Positions 40,040 to 64,000 of a DNA stretch of 64,000 nt are shown in pieces. The notes under the pieces were generated by a model that had not been told where the DNA came from, ran no database searches, and saw only the letters and a program-made list of their open reading frames with translations. The stretch comes from Escherichia phage ECML-4. The stretch is taken from sequence record JX128257, one strand, 5' to 3'. The first letter of the stretch is position 1; every line of letters begins with the position of its first letter. The position numbers were made by a program, and so were the translations under genes.

Positions 40040-40489
40040 TTAGGCTTCTCTCTTCGCCAGCCCTGGTTTGAATACCACCATTTCTTCTACGTTATTGGCA
40101 CTCATAGAGGCTATGGAATCGAATCCTTTATTGATAAGTTCCTTCACATTATCGTGAATCTTACCAGGTTCTATCCCCAACTCACGCATTTTGTTTTCCC
40201 AAACAGAAACGTTATTAGAATCTATTACCAGAGTCTTCTTGGCCTTAACACGAAATGCCATGACAACAGGTTCACCAGATTGACGATAGCGAACGGCGTT
40301 TTCCGCGTAGATCTGCGCTTTTTCTGGATCCCCTGTCAGGTAAAATCCAGCACCCATCGTACCAGAGTCAGTCTGGCCAAATTTTTCAAAATCAAAGACG
40401 TCGAATTCAACATTCGACCCATGATATAAAACAATATCCGTAAAATCGGGCAATGTTGATTCACGATAGAATTCTAGGAAGGTTTTCAT
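40040..40489 (-). CDS. ADP-ribosyltransferase-fold protein (PARP-like H-Y-E class candidate)
   Basis: LYHGSN (H-G-S), GAGFYLTGD (G-x-G-x-Y-F/L), IYAEN, later NNVEEMVVF resembling the PARP catalytic-Glu strand; 149 aa. Confidence 0.4.
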   Translation of the reverse strand: MKTFLEFYRESTLPDFTDIVLYHGSNVEFDVFDFEKFGQTDSGTMGAGFYLTGDPEKAQIYAENAVRYRQSGEPVVMAFRVKAKKTLVIDSNNVSVWENKMRELGIEPGKIHDNVKELINKGFDSIASMSANNVEEMVVFKPGLAKREA

Positions 40490-40528
40490 GGATACCCCAC
40501 ACTTGCTGTATGGGGTATTTAGGAGGGA

Positions 40529-50887: not shown

Positions 50888-52078
50888 ATGGCCGATTTCC
50901 TGAGTCAATATACAGGTCAGCAGATAGATCAGATATTGGGTTCTGTTGATGACAAAGTAAGTAAAAATGACGTTATTAACGATTTTGAAGTTAACGACCC
51001 GTTGTTTCCACCATCTGCTCGCCTGACTTATGAGTTGAAAAGGTCTGTGGATACGATTAATGATACCCTGACCAACAAAGTTATAAGAACGGATAGTGGC
51101 GAACAGACAATCAACGGTAAGAAGACATTTAATGCGCTGTTGGTTACTAACGGGGGAATCCAAGTCCCCACTGGGAAATCTGTTTCAATCGCGGACGAAC
51201 CAACCAACTCAACAGACGGTGTCAACCTGAGTATGTTGAGGAAACATGGTGTCAGTGAAGACACCGCGCCAGATGGGTCTGGTTTGGCTGGGGAATTATT
51301 GACTTCCGGATATTACAAATTCAAACTGGATTTTAACAGATTGGCTGCGTATACGGAATTAACTCTCCCAACATCAGTTCCCGTGCAAACAGATTCTGGA
51401 GTTCGCACATGGTCAATGACTGCATTTTTTAATGCGTTATTTGCCGACGACCGTTTTAACGGTTATGTAACGACGACCACGTATGATGCCGACATGTTGA
51501 GTCTGGAGTCTCAGCTTAACAATATCAACACGACGTTGAACGGCAAAGTCAACACGTCAACTTACAACACAAAAATGGCTTCGTTGGATTTGAGTATATC
51601 CAACATTAACACATCTTTGAGCAACAAGGTTGAGGTCAGCACATATAATACGAAGATGACTTCCTTGGACGGCAGTATCAGTTCTCTCACGACTGGTAAG
51701 GTCGATGTATCAACGTATAATGCCAAAATGACCACAATTGATAACAGTTTGGGGAACGCTGTTTATCGCACCAAAACAAACTTGTCATCACTGACAGTAT
51801 CGGCTTCTGGAACAACAGCTCTGCCAGACTTTGATTTGGTGAAACTTTGCCAGATATTGGTAACAGCACAATGGGGTACAGGAGATGTCGTAGACACATA
51901 TCGTGTCACCATAACTCGAGACGGGACGATTAAGTCTGAGCTGCTGATCCAGAAAAGTACGAGCGGAACTGTGACGTTTACGGGTTCTGTAGTTGGTGGG
52001 AAACTGAGGATTTCTGTTGTCAATGCCAATACGACAACACCTTGCTCAGTCGATTATTCTATTACAGCATCTTTCTAA
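50888..52078 (+). CDS. tail fiber-like protein with tandem peptide repeats
   Basis: AGGAG SD; repeated units VNTSTYNTKMASLD / VEVSTYNTKMTSLD / VDVSTYNAKMTTID; Ser/Thr/Asn-rich. Confidence 0.5.
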   Translation: MADFLSQYTGQQIDQILGSVDDKVSKNDVINDFEVNDPLFPPSARLTYELKRSVDTINDTLTNKVIRTDSGEQTINGKKTFNALLVTNGGIQVPTGKSVSIADEPTNSTDGVNLSMLRKHGVSEDTAPDGSGLAGELLTSGYYKFKLDFNRLAAYTELTLPTSVPVQTDSGVRTWSMTAFFNALFADDRFNGYVTTTTYDADMLSLESQLNNINTTLNGKVNTSTYNTKMASLDLSISNINTSLSNKVEVSTYNTKMTSLDGSISSLTTGKVDVSTYNAKMTTIDNSLGNAVYRTKTNLSSLTVSASGTTALPDFDLVKLCQILVTAQWGTGDVVDTYRVTITRDGTIKSELLIQKSTSGTVTFTGSVVGGKLRISVVNANTTTPCSVDYSITASF

Positions 52079-52082
52079 AACT

Positions 52083-52120
52083 AAATACCCCTAGATGACA
52101 TGAATACATTTAGGGGTATT
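52083..52120 (+). promoter_or_regulatory. conserved ATACCCC/GGGGTAT hairpin immediately upstream of a tailspike start codon
   Basis: AATACCCCTA (52083-52092) pairs with TAGGGGTATT (52111-52120), 4 nt before ATG 52125. Confidence 0.5.
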
Positions 52121-52124
52121 ACAA

Positions 52125-55100
52125 ATGGCCAACAAACCAACACAGCCTCTTTTCCCTTTGGGTTTAGAAACTTCGGAGTCTTCGAACATAAAAGGCTTCA
52201 ACAACTCCGGCACCATAGAGCATTCCCCTGGTGCAATATTGACGTTCCCTGAAGATACTGATGTTGCGGGTCTCCCATCTTCTGTGCGTTACAATCCTGA
52301 TAGTGATGAATTCGAAGGTTATTACGAAAATGGCGGGTGGTTGTCTTTGGGCGGCGGTGGAATACGCTGGGAAACGCTCCCATACGCTCCCTCCAGCAAT
52401 CTGTTAGAAGGGCGCGGCTATCTCATTAATAACTCCACTGGGACTTCTACGGTGGTTCTTCCTTCCCCTACGCGCGTTGGTGACTCGGTTACAATTTGTG
52501 ATGCCTATGGTAAATTCGCGACGTATCCATTGACCGTATCTCCAGCGGGAAATAACCTGTACGGCTCCACCGAAGATATGACGATATCCACCGATAACGT
52601 GTCGGCGACTTTCACTTGGTCTGGTGCTGAGCAGGGTTGGGTTGTTACATCTGGTGTTGGCCTCGGTCAAGGTCGTGTGTACAGTCGAGAGATTTTCACT
52701 CAAATTTTAGCATCTGATACAAATGAAGTGACTCTCAACATCCCTCCGACAATTGTGGACGTGTACACTGATGGGAAACGCCTTACAGAATCCAAATATT
52801 CTTTAAATGGAAACGTAATCACTTTCGACCCTTCTTTACCTGCTGGCACTGAATTGCAGGTAATAGAATATACTCCGATTCAGTTAGGTACTGGCGGCGG
52901 GGGTTCGGGCGCTTCTGCAATCACCTGGATTTACAATGGCGGATCCGCTATCGGCGGCGAAACCGAAATAACGCTAGACATCGTTGTAGATGATGTTCCG
53001 GCTATTGATATAAACGGGTCTCGTCAGTACAAAAATCTTGGATTCACGTTCGACCCATTGACGAGTAAAATCACTCTGACGCAAGAACTGGAACCAGAAG
53101 ATGAAGTTGTTGTGGTTATAAATGGGACACCAAACATCTATAACCAGATCGATCGTTCTTTACAGGAAGTTGCTCGCGCCTACAATTTTACAAATGCTCA
53201 AGTTATTTTGAGCAACGATTATACTTCTGTGCTGGATAATAAAGTCGTTATTTATGATACGACATCCCAACGTTCTTGGGGGATTCCATCTGGAATTCCA
53301 GCAGGTTCTACAGTGGTTTCCGTCAATGGGGATCAACTGAAATACAAAAATGGATCAACTGAAACCACTGTTACATTGGTGAGCGTACCAGGTAGTGCAG
53401 AGAAGTTGAAGAACGATCTGGCGTCGAACTCTGGCGCGGGTATGTTGAAAACTTCTAGAGGTGATACCGTAGAAGAAGAATTGACTTTTATTAATCAGAA
53501 TATGGTCGTTCAAATTTCAGATTTCGCGAGCCTTAGAACTTTAGTGCCAGCCACAGCGGGCATCCGAGTCAAATTGAAAGGTTATTATTCTGGTTCTGAA
53601 ATTGGTGGCGGAGAATTCATTTCCGTCGCTGGTGATGCTGTTGATGATGCTGGGATGATTGCTCGAGTGTCAAGCAGCTTCTATTGGAAGAGAATTATCG
53701 ACAAACATATTACTCCTGGTATGTATGGCATCAAAGGGAATCTTCCAGAAGATCCGGCAGTGAAACTGAACGCTATGTTTGCGGCTGCGGCTGCGGCTAA
53801 CGCTTATGTCTTACTGAACGATGTCGATACTCTGGTCTGTAAAAGCCCTGTCGTGATCCCAGCACATTCATTAGTGTACGGCAACAAGCGGACCATATTG
53901 AAACGTGATGCATCGTTGTCATATGCTAATGATTTCTTGACAATTATGAATGATTCATATGTCAAGGGGATCTATGTTGATGGTAGCCGTTTAGATTCTC
54001 AGACTCCGCTAGAAGCAGTTTTGGTGCGCATCGCTGGGAATGTGACTATCCATAAGAGCGAGATCCGAAACAATGCTGGCTATGGCGTTGTTGGTAACGC
54101 AGTCCCTGGCATTCGTATCACCAAGAACATTTTTTCCAACTTCGCCAAAGGTTGTGTGGCTATGTTTGGTGACGGAACGGCGACGAGTGATGATCTGCAA
54201 ATTAATGATAACAGATTCTTTAACCTGGGCGCGGGAACCATTTATGTTGGCGGTTACTCAAACTTCCTTGTCGACAAAAACGTCGGAAGAGGCACTTACG
54301 TGGGTTCTCCAGGAAACCGTCTGTATGTTGTGACCAATACCAACGGGACTATCACCCAAAGCGCTGGGCCAGATTTTGGGGCGCTGAAAACGGGTATGTT
54401 CTTTGTATTGCCTGGTGGTTCTGAACATATGATAACGGCAGTCAACAGCCTTACAAGTGTGACAGTAACCCCAGCACCTCCGTCGAATGCAACGGTTCGT
54501 GCAATTGCTGGGACAGGGGATCTTCTGGGCATCCAATCATGCTCCTACGGCACCATCAGCCGTAACAACCTGACCGATTGTGTGACTTACGGAACTGGTG
54601 GAGGCACGATGGAGGGGAGCACTCTGGGGTGCAATTATGTCACATGGGAAGACAACTTCATCCGCAACACAGGTAAGAACGGAATCAACGTCGGGCAATC
54701 AGGCGCTGGGGTCGCCACGTGTTCAATCCTGAGGAACACTCTGATACAGGTTGGTAACGGCGGTCAGGGTGTTGGCCCAGCGTATCTTCTGCCTTGGTTC
54801 GATACGGTAGGTATTGCTCTGTATCAGGGAAACCCAGGTTATATGGCGAATATGGACGTCAGTGATAACAACGTCTCTACATGGTCTGGCGATCTGAATG
54901 ACGGCGCTGCTTGGTTTGGTATGAGCGGTTGTACGGAAGCCACTGTGACTTGTACAGGCAACAAATCTTCTGGTTATTCCGACGGCTATGTTCGTGGAGA
55001 TATATTAGAAGTCACGTTGACAGGTTATGGTACAGGGGCGGCTGCGACTTCATTCGTTAGTGATGGTGAGTCTATACAGATAACTGTTCAAACAGGTACT

Positions 55101-55298
55101 TCACCAACAGCTTCTCCTTATTTTTCAGTGCGGAAGGCGATCCGCACCCGCCATCAACCGATGATAACGGCGCAGATCGTCACCACAACTGGGAACATGT
55201 CTCATTGTTGGGGTATGCAATCTAGTACAGCAGGAAATTGGATGGTGGGTCAGAATACAACTCCTTCAGGGGTCACGACGTATTACGCAAAAGGGTAA
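52125..55298 (+). CDS. tailspike protein (1057 aa) with beta-helix region
   Basis: internal module IDRSLQEVARAYNFTNAQVILS...VVIYDTTSQRSWGIP homologous to the other three tailspikes; C-terminal Gly/Asn/Thr-rich repeats typical of right-handed beta-helix. Confidence 0.75.
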   Translation: MANKPTQPLFPLGLETSESSNIKGFNNSGTIEHSPGAILTFPEDTDVAGLPSSVRYNPDSDEFEGYYENGGWLSLGGGGIRWETLPYAPSSNLLEGRGYLINNSTGTSTVVLPSPTRVGDSVTICDAYGKFATYPLTVSPAGNNLYGSTEDMTISTDNVSATFTWSGAEQGWVVTSGVGLGQGRVYSREIFTQILASDTNEVTLNIPPTIVDVYTDGKRLTESKYSLNGNVITFDPSLPAGTELQVIEYTPIQLGTGGGGSGASAITWIYNGGSAIGGETEITLDIVVDDVPAIDINGSRQYKNLGFTFDPLTSKITLTQELEPEDEVVVVINGTPNIYNQIDRSLQEVARAYNFTNAQVILSNDYTSVLDNKVVIYDTTSQRSWGIPSGIPAGSTVVSVNGDQLKYKNGSTETTVTLVSVPGSAEKLKNDLASNSGAGMLKTSRGDTVEEELTFINQNMVVQISDFASLRTLVPATAGIRVKLKGYYSGSEIGGGEFISVAGDAVDDAGMIARVSSSFYWKRIIDKHITPGMYGIKGNLPEDPAVKLNAMFAAAAAANAYVLLNDVDTLVCKSPVVIPAHSLVYGNKRTILKRDASLSYANDFLTIMNDSYVKGIYVDGSRLDSQTPLEAVLVRIAGNVTIHKSEIRNNAGYGVVGNAVPGIRITKNIFSNFAKGCVAMFGDGTATSDDLQINDNRFFNLGAGTIYVGGYSNFLVDKNVGRGTYVGSPGNRLYVVTNTNGTITQSAGPDFGALKTGMFFVLPGGSEHMITAVNSLTSVTVTPAPPSNATVRAIAGTGDLLGIQSCSYGTISRNNLTDCVTYGTGGGTMEGSTLGCNYVTWEDNFIRNTGKNGINVGQSGAGVATCSILRNTLIQVGNGGQGVGPAYLLPWFDTVGIALYQGNPGYMANMDVSDNNVSTWSGDLNDGAAWFGMSGCTEATVTCTGNKSSGYSDGYVRGDILEVTLTGYGTGAAATSFVSDGESIQITVQTGTSPTASPYFSVRKAIRTRHQPMITAQIVTTTGNMSHCWGMQSSTAGNWMVGQNTTPSGVTTYYAKG

Positions 55299-55310
55299 TA
55301 TTGAATGCCT

Positions 55311-55345
55311 AAATACCCCATATTGGTCATCCTTTATGGGGTATT
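55311..55345 (+). promoter_or_regulatory. conserved ATACCCC/GGGGTAT hairpin upstream of a tailspike start codon
   Basis: AATACCCCATA pairs with TATGGGGTATT, ending 4 nt before ATG 55349; near-identical copy at 57847-57881. Confidence 0.5.
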
Positions 55346-55348
55346 ATC

Positions 55349-57232
55349 ATGATTTCTCAATTCAATCAACCACGCGGCTCCACTTCCATAGAAGTTAACA
55401 AACAATCTATCGCTCGAAATTTCGGTGTCAAAGAAGACGAAGTCATTTATTTCACTGCTGGTATTGATCTCAGTGGATTTAAAGTAATTTATGATGAGTC
55501 TACCCAACGGGCTTATTCTCTCCCTTTCGGTATTGTTTCAGGGACAACTGCAATTAGTCTGGATGAAAGAGCTATCCTCACTCATTCCGCTGGCTCTGTT
55601 GACCTTGGGGAATTAGCAGTAAGCCGCGAAGAATATGTGACTTTACCTGGTTCTTTTAATTTCGGCCATACCATTAATGTGAAAAATGAACTTCTTGTTC
55701 ACGATGATAAAAAATATCGATGGGATGGCACATTACCTAAAGTTGTTCCTGTTGGATCAACTCCTACAACAACTGGGGGAATTGGGGTTGGTGCATGGTT
55801 GAGTGTTGGTGATGCATCGCTACGTGGTGAATTATTTTCAGAATACATCTTATACAAAACACCTCAGGCATTTGGTGCTATTGGTGATGGAGTTGCTGAT
55901 GACACTTTATCACTGCAAGATGCAATGGATTACTGTCAGGTTCACAACGAGAAACTTGTTATCCCATCAGGACGCTATCGAATCACCAAGCCACTGCTAT
56001 ATCGCAACCAGGGTTTTTATAACTATGAGATTGAAGGGCAGGGAGGTGCTGCTGTAATCATCATGGATTCTCTGGAAAAAACTGGAATTACTGCTCCTGA
56101 TGCCTTTGGCGATGATTTTAACGTTAACGCAGCGATGGTAGTTCTGAATGACACTAACCAGAGTAAGTATTGCCGCATTAGTGGATTGCGTTTCGAATCA
56201 CCAGTTGGTGCTGAATATGCTATTTATGTTGGTCAGGCAGAAAATACGTATATCCATGACTGCTTCTGGACTGGTTTCACCTTTGGGTGGTATGACCTTG
56301 GATCATGGGTTACACGCGTAGAACGCTGTATTGCCAGGGATATTGTAGATACTGGGTTCTTTAAGAAAAATGGCACCAGTACCTACATAGCTGAGTGTTA
56401 TGCAGACAGGATGATGCGAGGGTATTACCTCGGGGGTGGGTATTCGGCTATCATAAATTGTGCTTGCGATTTAACCACTCGCTGGGGGTTCTATCTATAT
56501 GGTGGTAGGACTGGTTCTGATTTAGCAACATTCTCTATTAAAGGTTGTGGTTCAGAGCAGTCTGGAACTGATTCTGTATTTTATGTTGACGGGCTAGTTG
56601 CGCTGTCTATAGAGGACCACAACGCAGGTAATGACCCAACTGTTCAACCAGCACCTGCTGCGTTGCTTAGCATGGCTTCGAATACATCATATTCACAAGT
56701 GGTGCTGAAAAATATTAGGACAGTAAATGTGGATACATTAATTTTGGATTCTGCTGACCATAATTATTTTGATTTAACAAATGTCACATGCCGCAGCGAG
56801 ATGTCGAAAGAATTTTATCTCGGTACGAATTCAAGAGTTTTAAAAAGGTCATATGATGGTGAAAGATTCATTACTAGCAACGACCAAGTTGGCATTGGCT
56901 TTGCGGAGTCTGATATTGTTGATGGATGGACAGATCTCACTTTGTCTGGACTAAGAAATGGACAATTTATAATTAGGAGGACTGTAAGCATACCCAGAAC
57001 TTCAGGGGATGCTGGGGCGGTAACTATCACGATGCCATTAAATATGGATACGAATTATACCGTAGCTGCCACTCTGGAGGGTGAATTTAGTCAACTGCAA
57101 TCCATTTGCCCTGTGTTCAGTGTTACAGATAAAACATCATCTAGTTTTTCTTTGTGTGCATCGTCTGCAAAGAATAATACAACATGGTCAGCTATAGATG
57201 TTGAGGTGATTATATATGGGCTGAAATCGTAA
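55349..57232 (+). CDS. tailspike protein (627 aa), pectate-lyase-like beta-helix
   Basis: N-terminal anchor shared with the 60707 gene (KVIYDESTQRAYSLP...HSAGSVDLGELA...LPGSF); FGAIGDGVADDTLSLQDA resembles the Pectate_lyase_3 signature. Confidence 0.8.
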   Translation: MISQFNQPRGSTSIEVNKQSIARNFGVKEDEVIYFTAGIDLSGFKVIYDESTQRAYSLPFGIVSGTTAISLDERAILTHSAGSVDLGELAVSREEYVTLPGSFNFGHTINVKNELLVHDDKKYRWDGTLPKVVPVGSTPTTTGGIGVGAWLSVGDASLRGELFSEYILYKTPQAFGAIGDGVADDTLSLQDAMDYCQVHNEKLVIPSGRYRITKPLLYRNQGFYNYEIEGQGGAAVIIMDSLEKTGITAPDAFGDDFNVNAAMVVLNDTNQSKYCRISGLRFESPVGAEYAIYVGQAENTYIHDCFWTGFTFGWYDLGSWVTRVERCIARDIVDTGFFKKNGTSTYIAECYADRMMRGYYLGGGYSAIINCACDLTTRWGFYLYGGRTGSDLATFSIKGCGSEQSGTDSVFYVDGLVALSIEDHNAGNDPTVQPAPAALLSMASNTSYSQVVLKNIRTVNVDTLILDSADHNYFDLTNVTCRSEMSKEFYLGTNSRVLKRSYDGERFITSNDQVGIGFAESDIVDGWTDLTLSGLRNGQFIIRRTVSIPRTSGDAGAVTITMPLNMDTNYTVAATLEGEFSQLQSICPVFSVTDKTSSSFSLCASSAKNNTTWSAIDVEVIIYGLKS

Positions 57233-57269
57233 TTATTGTATTAAATAAATAACTTATCTTTTATTAAAA

Positions 57270-57296
57270 AACCCCGCTTCGGTGGGGTTAGTTTTT
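57270..57296 (+). terminator. rho-independent terminator
   Basis: AACCCCGCTTCGGTGGGGTT hairpin followed by GTTTTT. Confidence 0.6.
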
Positions 57297-57846
57297 AGAA
57301 GTTGTTGATGGTAATCGGCGATGATTGCTCATTTTGTTTTGGGTAATTCTTCGATCTTCAGTCGTTAAACGCCATCATTGCTGCTTCCCATCCCAGCGCC
57401 ACACACACACACACTATGCATCCGGCATTTAAAGATGCGGAAAGGTAATCAATCTGGCCTTCCTCCCAATCGCTAATTGTGTGGTCTTTCCTCTTGCTTC
57501 TGGTGTTTCTTTGTCCGGCGCTGGGAATTATATGGTAATTTCGGGAAACACGTTGATGGCTAATAACCCATCTGCGCCTGAAAATATAACTTTGTATCAG
57601 GTCACAGGTGCGCAGAGTTGGGTGGCCCATTATGAAACTATCAGATGTGTTCGAAATGATTTCAAATCTGCGCTGTTGGCGATTAATGCAACAGGGACAG
57701 CACAATCTGGTTTGAGTACTACCAATAAATTCTGGTTCGGGGATAACGCGACGATCAATACCACGGTTGTTTGTACTTATCCTGCTGGCAACAAAGCCAA
57801 CACCGATATCACTCAGACAGTTTCAGTTTAAATTGAATTGAGCCTA

Positions 57847-57881
57847 AATACCCCATATTGGCAAATCCTTTATGGGGTATT
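57847..57881 (+). promoter_or_regulatory. conserved ATACCCC/GGGGTAT hairpin upstream of a tailspike start codon
   Basis: AATACCCCATA ... TATGGGGTATT, about 35/40 identical to the 55311 copy; track ORF starts at an ATG inside the 3' arm. Confidence 0.5.
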
Positions 57882-57886
57882 TTCAA

Positions 57887-60652
57887 ATGACCAGAAATGT
57901 AGAAGAATTATTCGGCGGCGTAGTCACAGCTCCCCACCAGATTCCTTTCACTTATAAATCAAGTGTCGGTGGAGAAACTTTCTTTTCTCTACCTTTCTAT
58001 CCTGTCACTGGTGTTGTCACAATCAACGGTGGTATGCAAGTTCCGTTAGAGAACTTCGAGATAGACGGGAATACGTTGAATCTCGGGCGCGCATTGTCCA
58101 AAGGCGATGTTGTGTATTGCTTATTCGATAAAATTCTTTCACCAGAAGACACTGCCAAAGGCATCCGCATATACAAATTTCAAGCCGTGGGTGGAGAAAC
58201 CGAATTCACGCCTGACTTTACTTCTTATGGTGTACAGTCTCTTTATATCGGTGGCGAATACAAAACTCCTGATATAGAATATTCATACAACAGTACGACT
58301 GGGAAAGTGTCTTTGCAAACTGCATTGACTGCAGGCGTTTGGGTAGTCGCTGAAATCTCTGTTAAACAACCGAATATCAGTCCGGCGTTTGACCGCAGTA
58401 TTCAAGAAATTGCCCGTTCTGCTAATGTGAAAGACTCTGAAGTCATCGTTAGTACGGACACCATATCTTTGTTGGATGGGAAGAAAGTTGTTTATGACAT
58501 AGCGGCACAAACCAGTTATGGTTTACCAACCATTCCTGATGGTTCTGTCATTTCTACGATCTCAGACGGGAAATTGAATTACAACCCAGGTGATGTGCAG
58601 GTTGATTTGTTGCCTTTAGAAGATTCATTTATTAATGTGATAAACACTCTGGGGCGCAATGATGGTGCCAAGTATATCGGAGAATGCCATTCTGTTGCTG
58701 ATCTCAGGAATACTGAACCCACTATGGATGGACAACGCATTATTCTTAAGCAACACACTGCGGGTACTCTTCTTGGTGGAGGGGTATTCCGTGCGTTAAT
58801 TGATGGTACAGGAAAGACTGATGATAACGGTACTGTGATCAAAACTGTTGGCGGCGCAGCCTGGTTACGTGTTAATGCTGATAGAGTTAACCCATTCATG
58901 TTTGGTGCTTTGGGTGGTTCTAATGATGATACTATTCCAGTACAATCTTGTGTGGACAGTGGTAAGGCCACACAATTAACTGGTATACATTACGTTAGCA
59001 ATATCCAGTTAAAATATAATACGTCGTCTATTTATGGGTCTGGATTACATTACTCCAGGTTGCATCAGTTGCCTTCTGCTACTGGGAATTGTATTACCAT
59101 AAAAGATACATGCTCCCTTATTGTATTAGACTCCTTTGGGGTATATGGCACAGGTGCACAACAAGGCACATCATTTACTGCGGGTACAACAGGTATCTAT
59201 ATAGAAACTCCTTCAGGTCTCTCAGCCGATTATCCGTTCCACACTACCGCAGACCCAAGACGCGACTTGTGTATTTCTAAGGTCCATATAGCAGGTTTTG
59301 ATGAATATGGGTTAAATATTGATAGTGGTAACTTTAGTGTTACTACAGATTCTCTTTTAGTCAACCACATCAATCAGGTGGGCGTCCGTTGTGCTACTAC
59401 TGATTGGACTTGGACAAATATCCAGGTTAATACCTGCGGTAAACAATGTCTGGTTCTTGATGGTTGTGGTAATGGTCGTATTATTGGTGGTAAATTCATT
59501 TGGGCTAACTGGCAACCTTATGGTACAGTAGGACAGTTCCCAGGCATTACTATTAATAATAGCCAGAATATGGTTATTAATGGTATTGAGGTACAAGATT
59601 GTGGCGGGAATGGCATTGAGATTAGCGATTCATATTCAATTTCCATGAACGGATTGAACACCAATCGTAACGGCATCAACGCTAACAACACTTTCTACAA
59701 CATCGTATTTAACAAAAGTGATGCAGTTATCAACGGATTCGTAGGACTCAATTATGCCGCGAATAGTGGTTCAGGTGCTAACTCTAGTGCGGGCAATTTT
59801 CAGTTCCTGTCTAATGATTGCAGCGTCACCATTAATGGTGTGGTTGAGACTGGTTATATGGGCATTAACTTTATTGGTGATAACAATATTATCAACCCCA
59901 CAAATTCCGACCTGAGCATTAACGGATTGGTTAATTATTCCAAGACTGGTTTGCAAACCATGAACGAGACCCCTACATTTGATGGTGTTAGCACTACACC
60001 TGTTTATGTAAGTGTCCCATCTTCTGTAGGGCAAGTAAATGGTCTGAGACTATCACAAGCCAACAAAGATAAATTACTGTACTCAAGAACAGCAGGTCCA
60101 GAAGGTATTACCATGGCTGCTGTTGTAGTACCTACCATATCTGGAGCTGAAGTATTTAACTTCATGGCCATTGGTTCAGGGTTTAGTGATACATCCAACA
60201 GTCTTCATCTTCAATTAGTTATAGACGCTTCCGGAAAACAAACAATTGCTTTGCTATTGGGGGGCGATGGTACAACCCAAATTTTATCTGGGGATTTACC
60301 TAACGACCTTAAACTACAAAGTGGTGTGCCATATCATATAGCTATTGGTGCTAAACCTGGATATTTCTGGTGGAGTATTCTTAATATTCAGACGGGTAAG
60401 AGAATCAGACGGTCATTCCGAGGCGCTTATTTAGCTGTACCATTTAATTCTATATTCGGATTAACTTCTTCATTAACATTCTTCTCGGATAGCAATGCTG
60501 GTGGGGATGCCTGTTCTGGTGTAGGTGCTAAAGTGTATGTTGGTATGTTCTCTTCTGAGAATGATTATGTAGCTTCACGGTACTACAACCTGATTAATCC
60601 TGTAGACCCTAATAAGTTAATTAGTTACCGTATATTGGATTCTTCTATTTAA
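57887..60652 (+). CDS. tailspike protein (about 921 aa) with beta-helix region
   Basis: start set to ATG 57887 by analogy with the other tailspikes; module FDRSIQEIARSANVKDSEVIVS...VVYDIAAQTSYGLP homologous to the 52125 gene; Gly/Asn-rich repeats. Confidence 0.75.
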   Translation: MTRNVEELFGGVVTAPHQIPFTYKSSVGGETFFSLPFYPVTGVVTINGGMQVPLENFEIDGNTLNLGRALSKGDVVYCLFDKILSPEDTAKGIRIYKFQAVGGETEFTPDFTSYGVQSLYIGGEYKTPDIEYSYNSTTGKVSLQTALTAGVWVVAEISVKQPNISPAFDRSIQEIARSANVKDSEVIVSTDTISLLDGKKVVYDIAAQTSYGLPTIPDGSVISTISDGKLNYNPGDVQVDLLPLEDSFINVINTLGRNDGAKYIGECHSVADLRNTEPTMDGQRIILKQHTAGTLLGGGVFRALIDGTGKTDDNGTVIKTVGGAAWLRVNADRVNPFMFGALGGSNDDTIPVQSCVDSGKATQLTGIHYVSNIQLKYNTSSIYGSGLHYSRLHQLPSATGNCITIKDTCSLIVLDSFGVYGTGAQQGTSFTAGTTGIYIETPSGLSADYPFHTTADPRRDLCISKVHIAGFDEYGLNIDSGNFSVTTDSLLVNHINQVGVRCATTDWTWTNIQVNTCGKQCLVLDGCGNGRIIGGKFIWANWQPYGTVGQFPGITINNSQNMVINGIEVQDCGGNGIEISDSYSISMNGLNTNRNGINANNTFYNIVFNKSDAVINGFVGLNYAANSGSGANSSAGNFQFLSNDCSVTINGVVETGYMGINFIGDNNIINPTNSDLSINGLVNYSKTGLQTMNETPTFDGVSTTPVYVSVPSSVGQVNGLRLSQANKDKLLYSRTAGPEGITMAAVVVPTISGAEVFNFMAIGSGFSDTSNSLHLQLVIDASGKQTIALLLGGDGTTQILSGDLPNDLKLQSGVPYHIAIGAKPGYFWWSILNIQTGKRIRRSFRGAYLAVPFNSIFGLTSSLTFFSDSNAGGDACSGVGAKVYVGMFSSENDYVASRYYNLINPVDPNKLISYRILDSSI

Positions 60653-60653
60653 A

Positions 60654-60677
60654 AATATACCCCTCTTCGGAGGGTAT
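60654..60677 (+). promoter_or_regulatory. ATACCC hairpin with TTCG tetraloop upstream of fourth tailspike
   Basis: ATACCCTC-TTCG-GAGGGTAT followed by T-run; AGGAGA SD then ATG 60707. Confidence 0.5.
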
Positions 60678-60706
60678 TTACTAGAGAAAAACAGGAGATT
60701 CTTATT

Positions 60707-62941
60707 ATGAATCCGCAATTTGCTCAACCAAAAGGTTCTACTTCAAAAGAATCGAACAAAGACAGTATTGCTCGTAAATTTGGGTGTAAAAAGTCGGAAG
60801 TCGTTTATGCGAAATCAGGACAGTCCTTGTCTGGATATAAGGTTATTTATGACAAGGAAACACAGAGAGCGTATTCCTTGCCTGTAGATATTCCAGCAGG
60901 AACCACGGCTATTAGCCTTAGCGCCAGTGCTCTGCTTGTACACTCTGGGGGTTCTGTAGACCTGGGCGAACTAGCTTCCCAACGCAATGAATATAATGTA
61001 TTACCTGGTTCTTTTACTACTGGTGCAATAGTATCCACAAAGAATGATGTACTTACCCACAATGGTATCCAGTATCGTTGGAATGGTTCATTACCTAAAG
61101 TTGTACCTCAGAACTCTTTACCATCCAGTGATGATAATTGGATTGGCTTGGGTGCTTCTTATCTGAAGGAACAGCTTAACAGTACCAGTGGTGCATCCAT
61201 GGTAGTACTGGCTAATGGCAAAACCATTGAAGAAGAATTTGCCGAAGAAGCTGCATGGCAGAACCAAGAGAATATGGTGAGAACCGTTATTCCTAATGTT
61301 TATCACCATATCCGTGGCGTTCAGCGTCACTCTGGTAAAAACTTAGCATGGTCTGCTCCAGACGTTGCTATTGATAAACTTAACCCTACGGATACCGTCT
61401 TCTACCGTATGCCCCAGATTGTTAAAACTGGTGATGGTACTCTGATGATTTTCTGTAATGAGTTGCATGGTAACAATACAGATATTGGTGCTACTCCAGA
61501 TCAGCAATGTAATATCGTTATGAAATACTCCATTGATAATGGGTGGTCTTGGTCGGCTAAGGTAGTGGTAGCTAACTTTGGGGCTACGTATCAGAACGGT
61601 GAGATTGCTGCTGTGTATAACCCAGTAGATGGTCGGGTATACTGTTACTTTACTTCCTGCAAAGGCCAGTTGGGTTGGGGATACTCACAGCCAGGCAATG
61701 ACCCTAATACATCATCCCAGATATATGTTACCTACTGTGATGCGGAAGCTCCTACTATATGGCGTACACCAGCTAACATTACTGCTACCCTTAAGCCAGC
61801 AACGGCAGATTTTATCTGGACTTCACCAACTAAACCAGTTGTTTTACCGGATGGTAAGATGGCAATGATTGTGTCTACCGTCACTGGTTCACGGGTTGAT
61901 TCTTTCCTTACCATCATGAAGTATGACATTAAGTACAGCATGGACTACGTACTTAGTTCCGAAGAATCTGGTGGGGAAGTCGGACTGAACCTTTTGCCGG
62001 ATGGTCGTATGGTGATGAACTCTCGTGCTTACCACACCACAGACCTTAAAGGGCTTCAGAAATTCTATATCAGTGATCATCAGTTTAAGAACTGGCAGCA
62101 CTTATCTGATTTAGTTACATCGGATAGTAAGGGTGACCTGGTTCCTATTTTTGATGGGGTTAATGGTGTTCTTACTTGGGCGTTTACTTGTGCTAATGGT
62201 GTAGGTGATAATTCTATTGGTCGTACTAACTACCGAGTATGGATTAGTCGTGACCTAGTTACTTGGGGGTTAGCTCCTACTGGGGATATCAACACAAGTG
62301 ATTCTGTTGGGTACATCGCATCAATGCCTGGTGGTGATGATGGTTATGTAATCTCTACATCTGAATCAGGTGGTTTTGGTGGTATTTGGTTTACTCAATG
62401 GAATGCTAAGTATATCCAGAACAGAAACTACAACCGCTATCACAAAGAGTTGCGAGAATTAGAGTCAGTAGATGAAACAGCAATGCTCGCATCCGGCGCT
62501 ATTCCTAACTACTCTTTTTACGTAAACAAAGACTCCAACCTAATTAACTTCAACCGCAACGGTACTCCAGTTAAGATTCAGCAATTGGGGGTTAGTCAGA
62601 ATGCTGTTGATAAGTACACTACAACTCAGACCCTAGCATCTATTCCTGTAGATGGTGTTGATATTGTATTAGTCACTGGTTCCGGTATTACTCTTACCCT
62701 TAGTGGGTTTAGCGGTGGATATATGGGCCAGCGTGTGACAGTTATCTCTGATTCATCTGGTGGTGGGGTAGTGCTTAAACGTGCTGATACAACATTGCCT
62801 ACTGTAACGGACAGATTCCACTTTAATGTGGCAGGAGCCTTTACTGCTTTGAGGGTAGACTATGCAACTAAGATGATGGTTACTTTAGTTAAGACTCCAT
62901 CTGGTTGGTTCACGGAAAGTATTGCTAACGTAACAATCTAA
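60707..62941 (+). CDS. tailspike protein (744 aa) with Asp-box (BNR) beta-propeller-like domain
   Basis: N-terminal anchor KVIYDKETQRAYSLP...HSGGSVDLGELA...LPGSF; Asp-box-like SIDNGWSWS and SRDLVTWG in the C-terminal half. Confidence 0.75.
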   Translation: MNPQFAQPKGSTSKESNKDSIARKFGCKKSEVVYAKSGQSLSGYKVIYDKETQRAYSLPVDIPAGTTAISLSASALLVHSGGSVDLGELASQRNEYNVLPGSFTTGAIVSTKNDVLTHNGIQYRWNGSLPKVVPQNSLPSSDDNWIGLGASYLKEQLNSTSGASMVVLANGKTIEEEFAEEAAWQNQENMVRTVIPNVYHHIRGVQRHSGKNLAWSAPDVAIDKLNPTDTVFYRMPQIVKTGDGTLMIFCNELHGNNTDIGATPDQQCNIVMKYSIDNGWSWSAKVVVANFGATYQNGEIAAVYNPVDGRVYCYFTSCKGQLGWGYSQPGNDPNTSSQIYVTYCDAEAPTIWRTPANITATLKPATADFIWTSPTKPVVLPDGKMAMIVSTVTGSRVDSFLTIMKYDIKYSMDYVLSSEESGGEVGLNLLPDGRMVMNSRAYHTTDLKGLQKFYISDHQFKNWQHLSDLVTSDSKGDLVPIFDGVNGVLTWAFTCANGVGDNSIGRTNYRVWISRDLVTWGLAPTGDINTSDSVGYIASMPGGDDGYVISTSESGGFGGIWFTQWNAKYIQNRNYNRYHKELRELESVDETAMLASGAIPNYSFYVNKDSNLINFNRNGTPVKIQQLGVSQNAVDKYTTTQTLASIPVDGVDIVLVTGSGITLTLSGFSGGYMGQRVTVISDSSGGGVVLKRADTTLPTVTDRFHFNVAGAFTALRVDYATKMMVTLVKTPSGWFTESIANVTI

Positions 62942-62948
62942 AATACAA

Positions 62949-62974
62949 GCCCCCAATAAGGGGGCTTTCTTTTG
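62949..62974 (+). terminator. rho-independent terminator
   Basis: AGCCCCCAATAAGGGGGCT hairpin followed by TTCTTTT. Confidence 0.6.
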
Positions 62975-63105
62975 CTATGTCTCGTTAACCTGACAGGAAC
63001 TGGAAGTTCAAAACTATCAGGTGGAGGAACTGGGTTTTTATTTCTATCTGTTTGTTGGCTGTATACTAAATATCTCTATAAAATGGCACTAGATGGAGCA
63101 TCAAA

Positions 63106-64000
63106 ATGCAATCTACAAATTTAAACCGTCGCCCGTATTGGGATGACTGGAATCCTGGGAAACGTTTTTCACGGATTCTTTTTCGTCCGATGCCTATCAA
63201 GGTTCAGACTCGCGAACTGAACCAGATGCAGACTATTCTTCAGGATCAAATTGAAAAACTGGGCAACCATCTGTTCAAAGATGGTTCTATGGTTATCCCT
63301 GGCGGTCTGACGATCACCAATGCCGCAGTCTCTTTGAAATTCACTTTGGCGGGTGGTACTGAATTCACCGATCTGGAAGGTATTTCTGAACTCTACGTTT
63401 TGGGGAAAGACAATAACGCCAAAGCGCGTGTGTTGTCTCTTGAACGTGATCTGTCTGCTCCTGATACGATGTTGGCCATCCTTGAGATGACTGAAGCGGG
63501 TAATGCTGACGGATTCCATGTTAACGATAATCTGTATTTCCAGACTTACGACGTGAATGATAATTTCATTCGTATTGGTTATGGGATCGCGGCTGCTGTA
63601 ACTGGTTCTATCGTTGCTCGTATGACGAAAGGCGTTTACTTCATTCGTGGGATGTTCCTTGATGTTGATGACGCGACTCTCATCGTCGATAAAACTTCAA
63701 ACACTTCTTCCCATCGCGTCGGGTTTAAAGTCACCGAAACCATCGTGACTGAATCTGAAGACGAATCCCTTTATTCAAACGCTCAGGGAACGATTAACTC
63801 CAAAGCCCCAGGCGCTCATCGTCTTCGAATAGATCTGGTCTTATCTCGATTTGATTATGATGCTGTGGTTGAAGACTTTGTTGAACTGGCCAAAGTTCGT
63901 GATGGTAAAATCCAGTCTATGGTGACTCAGTCCACCTATAATATTCTGGAAGACACGTTGGCTCAACGGACGTATGAAACCAACGGCGATTACAACGTTT
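63106..64000 (+). CDS. virion structural protein, 5' partial (runs off window end)
   Basis: open frame from ATG 63106 (GATGGAG SD) to the window end with no stop; part of late module. Confidence 0.5.
   Translation, partial: MQSTNLNRRPYWDDWNPGKRFSRILFRPMPIKVQTRELNQMQTILQDQIEKLGNHLFKDGSMVIPGGLTITNAAVSLKFTLAGGTEFTDLEGISELYVLGKDNNAKARVLSLERDLSAPDTMLAILEMTEAGNADGFHVNDNLYFQTYDVNDNFIRIGYGIAAAVTGSIVARMTKGVYFIRGMFLDVDDATLIVDKTSNTSSHRVGFKVTETIVTESEDESLYSNAQGTINSKAPGAHRLRIDLVLSRFDYDAVVEDFVELAKVRDGKIQSMVTQSTYNILEDTLAQRTYETNGDYNV

Follow-up and report, generated by a model that had tools for sequence, protein, structure and literature searches.

We analyzed the tailspike locus of Escherichia phage ECML-4 (157,308 bp; Kuttervirus, Ackermannviridae) in a window of 64,000 nucleotides (nt) taken from sequence record JX128257. 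An open reading frame (ORF) listing confirmed that four consecutive ORFs occupy positions 52125 to 62941 of the window on the plus strand, as an earlier note on this DNA had claimed. Each translation was an exact match to an ECML-4 tailspike protein (TSP), as follows (lengths in amino acids [aa]):

52125-55298, plus strand: TSP4, 1,057 aa, AFO10349
55349-57232, plus strand: TSP3, 627 aa, AFO10350
57887-60652, plus strand: TSP2, 921 aa, AFO10352
60707-62941, plus strand: TSP1, 744 aa, AFO10353

The genes thus lie in the order TSP4, TSP3, TSP2, and TSP1, flanked by baseplate and tail fiber genes and by vriC. We are highly confident that the region is the tsp cluster of this Kuttervirus, that it encodes the four trimeric tailspikes of a branched receptor-binding complex at the baseplate, and that it includes a swap of the TSP3 body.

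The four proteins share modules far beyond chance. In pairwise BLASTP comparisons, TSP3 and TSP1 were 55% identical over residues 1 to 164 (E value of 9e-52), corresponding to the D1-D2 head, and TSP4 and TSP2 were 30% identical over 272 residues (E value of 1e-29), while the heads of TSP1 and TSP3 were linked to the internal part of TSP2 and TSP4 with E values of 1e-5 to 2e-8. In a four-way alignment, the module common to all four comprised ca. 80 residues (IAR..V..L..V.YD..Q..P..I..G). Papers on phage CBA120 name it the D1 head domain, and it docks onto the XD domains. The similarity between TSP4 and TSP2 reaches both sides of D1, from XD3 through D3'. TSP1 and TSP3 start directly with the D1-D2 head, and Pfam family PF18668 (Tail_spike_N, the D2 domain) matched these two proteins only (E values of 1.7e-27 for TSP3 and 2.1e-8 for TSP1). 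Residues 1 to 164 of TSP3 align with CBA120 TSP3 (6NW9), the first mismatch being at residue 127, and residues 1 to 163/164 of TSP1 match the head in chains such as 4OJ5 and 6NW9. The earlier note had proposed one N-terminal module shared by the 627- and 744-aa proteins and a related internal module shared by the 1,057- and 921-aa proteins. Both were recovered, but the description of the common module as an anchor did not stand, since this module is the D1 head and the baseplate anchor is formed by residues 1 to 79 of TSP4.

The C-terminal parts, proposed to differ, had no significant mutual similarity in pairwise BLASTP and matched different families and folds, with beta-helix bodies in TSP4, TSP3, and TSP2 and a predicted GH33 sialidase-like propeller in TSP1 (NCBIfam gave nothing useful for TSP2 to TSP4). 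The assignment to the branched multi-tailspike apparatus of Ackermannviridae also held, both through the exact ECML-4 proteins and through homology to solved CBA120 domains. Comparison with characterized tailspikes and domain mapping found the expected anchor homology (7REJ, 6W4Q, 6NW9, 4OJ5, and PF18668). The branched TSP1 to TSP4 complex of CBA120 has been described by Plattner et al. 2019 and Chao et al. 2022 (PMC8825819), with structures 4OJ5, 6W4Q/5W6P, 6NW9, 5W6H, and 7REJ. The ECML-4 cluster has the same gene order, the same flanks, and the same D1/D2/XD domain logic. In CBA120, however, TSP1, TSP3, and TSP4 have bodies directed at Salmonella enterica O:21 and Escherichia coli O77 and O78, to which the corresponding ECML-4 bodies are not related.

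For nucleotide comparisons we used a BLAST collection of 50,697 phage records, from which ECML-4 itself is absent. The nearest records to the window were all Kuttervirus, with DNA 95 to 98% identical in KEP4, AR2819, and Vi01. Coverage of the region and identity were 84% and 97.7% for KEP4 (PP047754), 81% and 97.9% for AR2819 (MW021753), and 46% and 96.7% for Vi01 (FQ312032). KEP4 has the TSP4, TSP2, and TSP1 types of ECML-4 (96 to 98% nt identity), as does AR2819, and Vi01 has the TSP4 type in common. The differences concern TSP3. In AR2819 it is typed TSP3-1 (S. enterica O:4/O:9), with a body unlike that of ECML-4, while in KEP4 the body appears to be of the Vi01 type, with matches to the window confined to the head and the last 343 nt of the gene. 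ECML-4 proteins served Harris et al. 2024 as references for typing TSP1 (TSP1-20) and TSP2 (TSP2-1) of AR2819 (PMC10892097).

Residues 1 to 339 of TSP4 align end to end with the N-terminal part of CBA120 TSP4 (7REJ, TSP4-N335) with an E value of 1e-205 and ca. 91% identity. The domain limits in CBA120 TSP4-N are the baseplate anchor AD (1 to 79) and XD1 (80 to 178), followed by XD2 and XD3 (PMC8825819). The layout of ECML-4 TSP4 is accordingly AD, the T4 gp10-like assembly domains XD1-XD2-XD3, the D1 head, D3', and a beta-helix body, with a Pfam Beta_helix match at residues 631 to 719. Resemblance to solved depolymerases is confined to D3'. At the nt level, the gene is 98% identical to Vi01_173c over its whole length and belongs to the Vi01/Maynard type (TSP4-12 according to Harris et al. 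[PMC10892097]), which is present in at least 22 sequences. CBA120 TSP4 has been described with a D1-D2 head, whereas the corresponding part of the ECML-4 protein (ca. 340 to 545) has no match to PF18668 (D2) and is TSP2-like after D1 through D3'; the head architecture of TSP4 thus seems to vary between subtypes.

TSP2 (XD2-XD3, a single D1, D3', and a beta-helix) is similar over its full length to CBA120 TSP2 (6W4Q), with 21 differences in 921 residues (97.7% identity). The longest form of this ORF (57872-60652) would encode 926 aa, and the match to AFO10352 begins at the second ATG, at 57887. The 921-aa length given in the earlier note is correct because the crystallized CBA120 protein starts at that methionine (Met-6 of the long ORF). 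The upstream ATG at 57872 falls inside an intergenic hairpin and is spurious. Public annotations of this type are split between 926 and 921 aa. The TSP2 type recognizes the E. coli O157 O-antigen (PMC8432352, PMC7506556), and Sorensen et al. list ECML-4 under subtype TSP2-1/E. coli O:157 (PMC8432352). Given the 97.7% identity to the CBA120 spike, the same specificity is expected here. It is the sole receptor claim that rests on experiment, made with a near-identical protein. The earlier note's expectation of several polysaccharide receptors is reasonable and demonstrated only for the TSP2 type.

TSP1 (type TSP1-20) consists of the D1-D2 head, a predicted six-bladed propeller (ca. 210 to 575), and a C-terminal beta domain. 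By sequence, the body matched solved GH33 sialidases with an E value of 1e-9. An AlphaFold model built with 12 homologues had a mean predicted local distance difference test (pLDDT) score of 75.7, with the propeller blocks mostly at 85 to 94, and in Foldseek it matched more than 50 sialidase or KDNase chains with a probability of 1.0 and E values of 5e-17 to 1e-14. R234 (within FYRMP), D259, E424, and R440 align to residues of the Porphyromonas gingivalis sialidase, while R506 and Y536 were assigned by spacing. All six candidate catalytic residues sit at the canonical GH33 spacing, which we take to be that of S. typhimurium NanH. E424, R440, R506, and Y536 are kept in 12 of 12 homologues (34 to 80% identical), and R234 and D259 in 11 of them; the remaining homologue is gapped at these positions. 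The likeness to GH33 exo-sialidases and KDNases (P. gingivalis PG_0352 [8FEB], Hz136 [6MNJ], and M. viridifaciens [1EUS]) includes the predicted six-bladed propeller, the F-Y-R-M-P sequence (the "RIP" motif), two Asp-box-like motifs (SIDNGWSW at 275 and SRDLVTW at 514), and the Arg triad, Asp, and Glu/Tyr pair. However, the TSP1 body is just 16 to 19% identical to these enzymes, and its propeller is fused behind a trimeric tailspike head and carries an extra C-terminal domain. It is unlike the GH58 endosialidases of K1 phages. The modeled body is probably a GH33-type propeller that removes, or cleaves at, a sialic acid-like (nonulosonic acid) sugar.

The gap between TSP3 and TSP2, which the earlier note had not mentioned, spans 654 nt in the window, compared to 115 nt in AR2819 and 55 nt in Vi01. 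In AR2819, KEP4, and Vi01, the spacer (ca. 50 to 115 nt) contains no terminator, VRR-NUC fragment, or gene remnant. On our reading, TSP3 and the gap are made up of the following parts:

55349-55728, plus strand: backbone-derived part of TSP3, ca. residues 1 to 126, D1 and the first half of D2 (site-by-site alignment)
55729-57232, plus strand: imported part of TSP3, ca. residues 127 to 627, the rest of D2, neck, pectate-lyase-like beta-helix, and C-terminal domain
57270-57289, both strands: imported bidirectional intrinsic terminator, a G+C stem with T-runs on both sides (terminator scan)
57328-57495 (start approximate), minus strand: 3' end of a VRR-NUC gene, ca. 50 codons, 91% nt identity to ECO95 1-6-1
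57489-57831, plus strand: remnant of the displaced Vi01-type TSP3, its last 113 codons and stop in the original frame

In a site-by-site alignment, TSP3 was identical to AR2819 and nearly identical to Vi01 up to ca. 55728 and from there on of the type found in contig L009 (46 kb). The left crossover falls at 55716-55730, in the codons of a conserved YRWDG motif. The body behind it, a match to Pfam PF12708, had no Kuttervirus match in the collection of 50,697 records (query 55871-57232). Among phage records, the best matches came from siphophages of the Guernseyvirinae (CR01, M01, and UTEC10; 81% nt identity), and contigs L009 and L012 reached 89 to 90%.

The DNA that follows the gene points to the same kind of source. 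Positions 57267 to 57495 are 91% identical to the DNA just 3' of the ECO95 1-6-1 tailspike gene, where the counterpart is a terminator and the 3' end of an intact convergent gene for a 145-aa VRR-NUC nuclease. This complete ORF ends in ..LSDWEEGQIDYLSASLNAGCTVCVALGWEAAMMAFND.., and the same C-terminal peptide is found in a minus-strand ORF of the window (57358-57705). The arrangement of tailspike, terminator, and convergent VRR-NUC gene is that of a Guernseyvirinae-type locus, intact in ECO95 1-6-1 and annotated in phage gmqsjt-1, whose counterpart is called a "VRR-NUC domain protein." Since the VRR-NUC gene is truncated in the window, the direction of transfer would have been into the Kuttervirus. 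The minus-strand ORF (115 codons) runs antisense to the TSP3 remnant and across the junction into the VRR-NUC fragment, and it is almost certainly a chimera made by the swap and not a gene. A (CA)n run within the fragment (57397-57414) exceeds its counterpart in two related assemblies described below by 4 nt and reads VCVCVAL compared to VCVAL in ECO95 1-6-1, which looks like slippage in nonfunctional DNA.

Beyond a right junction with a 7-bp microhomology (TCCTCTT, 57489-57495), the sequence returns to a Kuttervirus tailspike. At the nt level, the remnant shares 99.0% identity with Vi01_172c at its 3' end and 98.7% with KEP4; with respect to Vi01, there are only 4 differing sites in ca. 400 nt, too few to judge selection. 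In KEP4, TSP3 matches the window in the head and again from 57489 on, the last stretch being ca. 99% identical to the 3' end of Vi01 TSP3 in both. The KEP4 sequence would thus fit the state before the swap, in a comparison that covers the head and the 3' end. Over the remnant lies a 116-codon ORF (57481-57831), whose product matches positions 1051 to 1148 of the 1,163 in PHROG 7992 (tail spike) with an E value of 8e-17. It is highly improbable that this ORF is a genuine fifth, small tail gene. Its frame is open, a gene has been called there in both metagenomic relatives (116 aa in L011 and 91 aa in L010), and it is more than 99% conserved among ECML-4, L010, and L011. However, the neighboring DNA is equally conserved, so that this conservation is no sign of selection. 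The ORF is exactly the last 113 codons of a Vi01-type TSP3 in the same frame, counted from the recombination junction, its GTG "start" lacks the ribosome-binding site or hairpin of real tsp genes, and its product would be without the head, the neck, and the greater part of the beta-helix, which trimerization and attachment require.

We therefore read the region as the outcome of two joins. One crossover would have taken place in the conserved YRWDG-coding motif and the other as an illegitimate join at the 7-bp microhomology inside the old gene. Together they would have imported ca. 1.76 kb from a phage with a Guernseyvirinae-type tailspike/VRR-NUC arrangement and left the tail of the old Vi01-type TSP3 as a dead remnant. 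Recombination at GTTAVSL/TD1 had been proposed by Sorensen et al. 2021 (PMC8432352). Pas et al. 2023 grouped ECML-4 receptor-binding protein 3 (RBP3) with a Gamaleyavirus spike (subtype X2) and regarded conserved DNA motifs on either side of the bodies as probable sites of recombination (PMC10408124). The left TSP3 junction fits their motif, but the right one does not lie at the conserved downstream motif, being an illegitimate join that kept imported flanking DNA. It is because this junction did not use the conserved motif that the remnant survives. We found no description of the scar in the searchable literature, which is absence of evidence only.

The same scar is present in two metagenomic relatives, L010 (ENA ERZ27313666, a 158-kb contig) and L011 (Logan SRR10451678), which match 55309-58233/58497 of the window in one alignment with 96% identity. 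Their junctions are identical base for base to those of the window, and the sole indel in the aligned stretch is the 4-nt difference in the (CA)n run. Their other spikes are of different types (TSP4 of 1,007 aa, TSP2 of 764 aa, and TSP1 of 596 aa). Phage lysates can be mixed, and the insert does join sequences typical of two phage families, so that a misassembly with reads from a cocultured siphophage might be imagined, but with the same junctions in two independent assemblies of other samples and the TSP3 reading frame intact across the left junction, we regard it as scarcely conceivable. Because an identical scar accompanies other TSP4, TSP2, and TSP1 types in those assemblies, the comparison points to one ancestral swap, after which the scarred allele would have spread by homologous exchange. 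We consider it likely that the spacer is the fossil of a single interfamily capture, from a Guernseyvirinae-type siphophage to a Kuttervirus, through a homologous crossover at YRWDG and the 7-bp join, that a strong terminator acting in both directions thereby came to lie in the middle of the tailspike row, ahead of the O157-specific TSP2, where it may alter the relative dosage of TSP2 and TSP1, and that the scarred allele then spread among Kutterviruses with differing TSP1, TSP2, and TSP4.

The TSP3 body itself occurs behind at least five different anchors, with 84 to 95% protein identity. It occupies the TSP1 position in a more distant member of the Ackermannviridae, together with the imported terminator (L012), adjoins gtrABC in L009, sits behind a UTEC10-type 611-aa anchor in 33- to 44-kb contigs, and follows P22-like head-binding domains in E. 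coli prophages and is also found in Citrobacter freundii prophages. More distant relatives (54% identity) occur in ca. 70-kb contigs of Gamaleyavirus size. Among 5,426 complete E. coli genomes, only two carried the body, both as IS911-cut fragments in an argW prophage remnant. In the chromosome of E. coli SWYHX138.261ft (L008, 7991-8983), the fragment cut by IS911 lies near gtrABC-type O-antigen glucosylation genes and intS at a tRNA-Arg, which looks like a decayed CPS-53/KplE1-like prophage. These prophage relatives point to O-antigens of E. coli and C. freundii. A receptor serogroup could not be read from the E. coli prophages, as the source names lack a serotype, and this approach was dropped. 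The "serotype O8" host of Gamaleyavirus PGN829.1 (subtype X2) was set aside as a weak hint, the phage having two spikes. In L012 (7938-8408), and also in L013, ca. 330 nt matching none of the tested loci separate the body and terminator from the vriC promoter and may represent a second scar, distinct from the first.

The number of anchors, and the fact that the closest sampled donor is only ca. 90% identical at the nt level, would also suit a transfer in the opposite direction, with the body arising in Kutterviruses and spreading to siphophages and prophages. We find this very unlikely, since the Kuttervirus allele carries a truncated VRR-NUC piece and a terminator, of which only Guernseyvirinae-type genomes have intact, functional-looking versions, and the imported allele overlies an older, truncated TSP3 gene. 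Furthermore, TSP3-1 was present in 52 of the 69 Kutterviruses of Sorensen et al. (PMC8432352), who do not list ECML-4 under this subtype, and the body of ECML-4 TSP3 was in no Kuttervirus record of the phage collection.

The assembly scheme of CBA120, whose branched complex of four trimers was shown by ultracentrifugation and electron microscopy (PMC8825819), was extended to ECML-4 because its assembly domains are 91 to 98% identical. TSP4 would hold the complex on the baseplate via a triple beta-helix at its N terminus (AD), with its XD2 trimer bound to XD2 of TSP2 and its XD3 trimer to the D1 head of TSP1, and TSP3 would dock on the TSP4:TSP2 subcomplex. Each spike would bring its own C-terminal glycan-binding and glycan-cleaving body, so that one virion could address several surface polysaccharides. 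TSP2 would cleave the E. coli O157 O-antigen, as shown for the 97.7% identical protein, and TSP3 and TSP4 would be beta-helix depolymerases. In the close relative Sajous1, mass spectrometry of virions detected several such proteins, namely, a tail spike protein, tail fiber proteins, and the sialidase-type gp139, typed there as TSP1 (PMC10892097), and not the single protein that the earlier note had considered as a possible outcome.

Several points weigh against this picture. The order of assembly and the presence in virions are taken from relatives and not from ECML-4, and no receptor is reported for the TSP1 (TSP1-20), TSP3, and TSP4 types in the literature found. As for the swap, no single donor with both the TSP3 body and the VRR-NUC flank at near-identity was found; the best nt identities to the donor parts are 89 to 91%, with no direct donor among the sampled sequences. 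The best flank match, ECO95 1-6-1 (91%), bears a different body, and a peptide-pattern scan of IMG/VR for close relatives of the TSP3 body gave no matches. Hence, we infer a donor lineage from the sequences and do not name a donor. Nevertheless, nothing that we found contradicts the four-spike cluster with a swapped TSP3.

The same lack of receptors leaves some room, although we judge it unlikely, for TSP2 working alone as the receptor-binding protein, the other three bodies being passengers kept for the role of their heads in the complex. ECML-4, the Intralytix phage, is known as an O157 phage, which would agree with this. In the related phage SPTD1, TSP1 and TSP4, which have different bodies, were dispensable for all known hosts, and nonfunction was raised by the authors (PMC9965104), so that a body in ECML-4 may be nonfunctional. 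Against passengers stand the six candidate catalytic residues of TSP1, retained in every homologue that covers the column, and the conservation of the TSP4 type in its 22 or more sequences. On five anchors unrelated to one another, some of them in prophages beside the O-antigen-modifying gtrABC, the TSP3 body has kept 84 to 95% protein identity and therefore appears to be under selection for function.

The expression signals of the row consist of hairpins and terminators, as follows (energies from RNA folding):

52085-52119, plus strand: hairpin ATACCCC..GGGGTAT, 5 nt before the TSP4 start, -19.1 kcal/mol
55313-55344, plus strand: hairpin ATACCCC..GGGGTAT, 4 nt before the TSP3 start, -19.6 kcal/mol
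57848-57880, plus strand: hairpin ATACCCC..GGGGTAT, 6 nt before the TSP2 start, -19.4 kcal/mol
60661-60674, plus strand: short G+C hairpin 3' of TSP2
62947-62967, both strands: bidirectional terminator at the end of the tailspike row, ahead of the vriC promoter region

A pattern search for ATACCCC-N13..21-GGGGTAT found four copies in the window compared to none expected, 2 to 6 nt before start codons. The fourth copy (40492-40518) precedes a minus-strand gene starting at 40489. The spacers between hairpin and start contain no separate ribosome-binding site, the GGGG of the 3' arm being the sole Shine-Dalgarno-like run, whereas TSP1 has an ordinary AGGAG ribosome-binding site in place of the long hairpin. 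We rejected these hairpins as a novel element, as they are probably what Pas et al. 2023 (PMC10408124) call the terminator-like "motif three"; their location directly at the start codons suggests a further function, in translation or in the processing of mRNA. The imported terminator (57270-57289) now stands between TSP3 and TSP2, where relatives free of the swap have just the ATACCCC hairpin. No T4-type late promoter (TATAAATA) able to drive TSP2 past this terminator was found in the region, and a scan for sigma-70-like promoters stayed below the shuffled expectation.

Upstream of the row, proteins match the baseplate wedge PHROG 219 and PHROG 3838 (function unknown, 396 aa). The 396-aa PHROG 3838 protein, encoded just 5' of TSP4 (50888-52078), is annotated as a tail fiber in AR2819. 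It has a weak N-terminal BppL_N-like match and three copies of a unit of ca. 25 residues, K-V-x-(T/V)-S-T-Y-N-(T/A)-K-M-x-(S/T)-(L/I)-D-x-S-(I/L), a peptide repeat that was not picked up by a tandem-repeat search at the DNA level. Downstream, 63032-63999 is 94% identical to Vi01_169c, a vriC-type gene for which AR2819 has the annotation VriC.

Published work already covers the cluster of four spikes, the logic of its domains, and the exchange of bodies (PMC8432352, PMC8825819, PMC9965104, PMC11414711), so that the finding of four tailspikes is correct but already known, and the fresh detail is the TSP3 scar. Together with the sialidase-type TSP1, it is a modest point worth a note. The four-spike apparatus explains how one phage can recognize several surface polysaccharides, and host range prediction already builds on it, as do engineered phages for reporting and biocontrol. 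For ECML-4, the practical content is a typing result, with O157 recognized through TSP2 and three further spikes besides, of which the sialidase-like TSP1 propeller would be a sensible target for receptor hunting among O-antigens with sialic, legionaminic, or pseudaminic acids. The cluster evolves by exchanging bodies behind conserved heads, TSP3 representing one recorded event. Its scar is a small, clean natural example of body movement between unrelated phages, and its exact junctions could guide the design of chimeric spikes.

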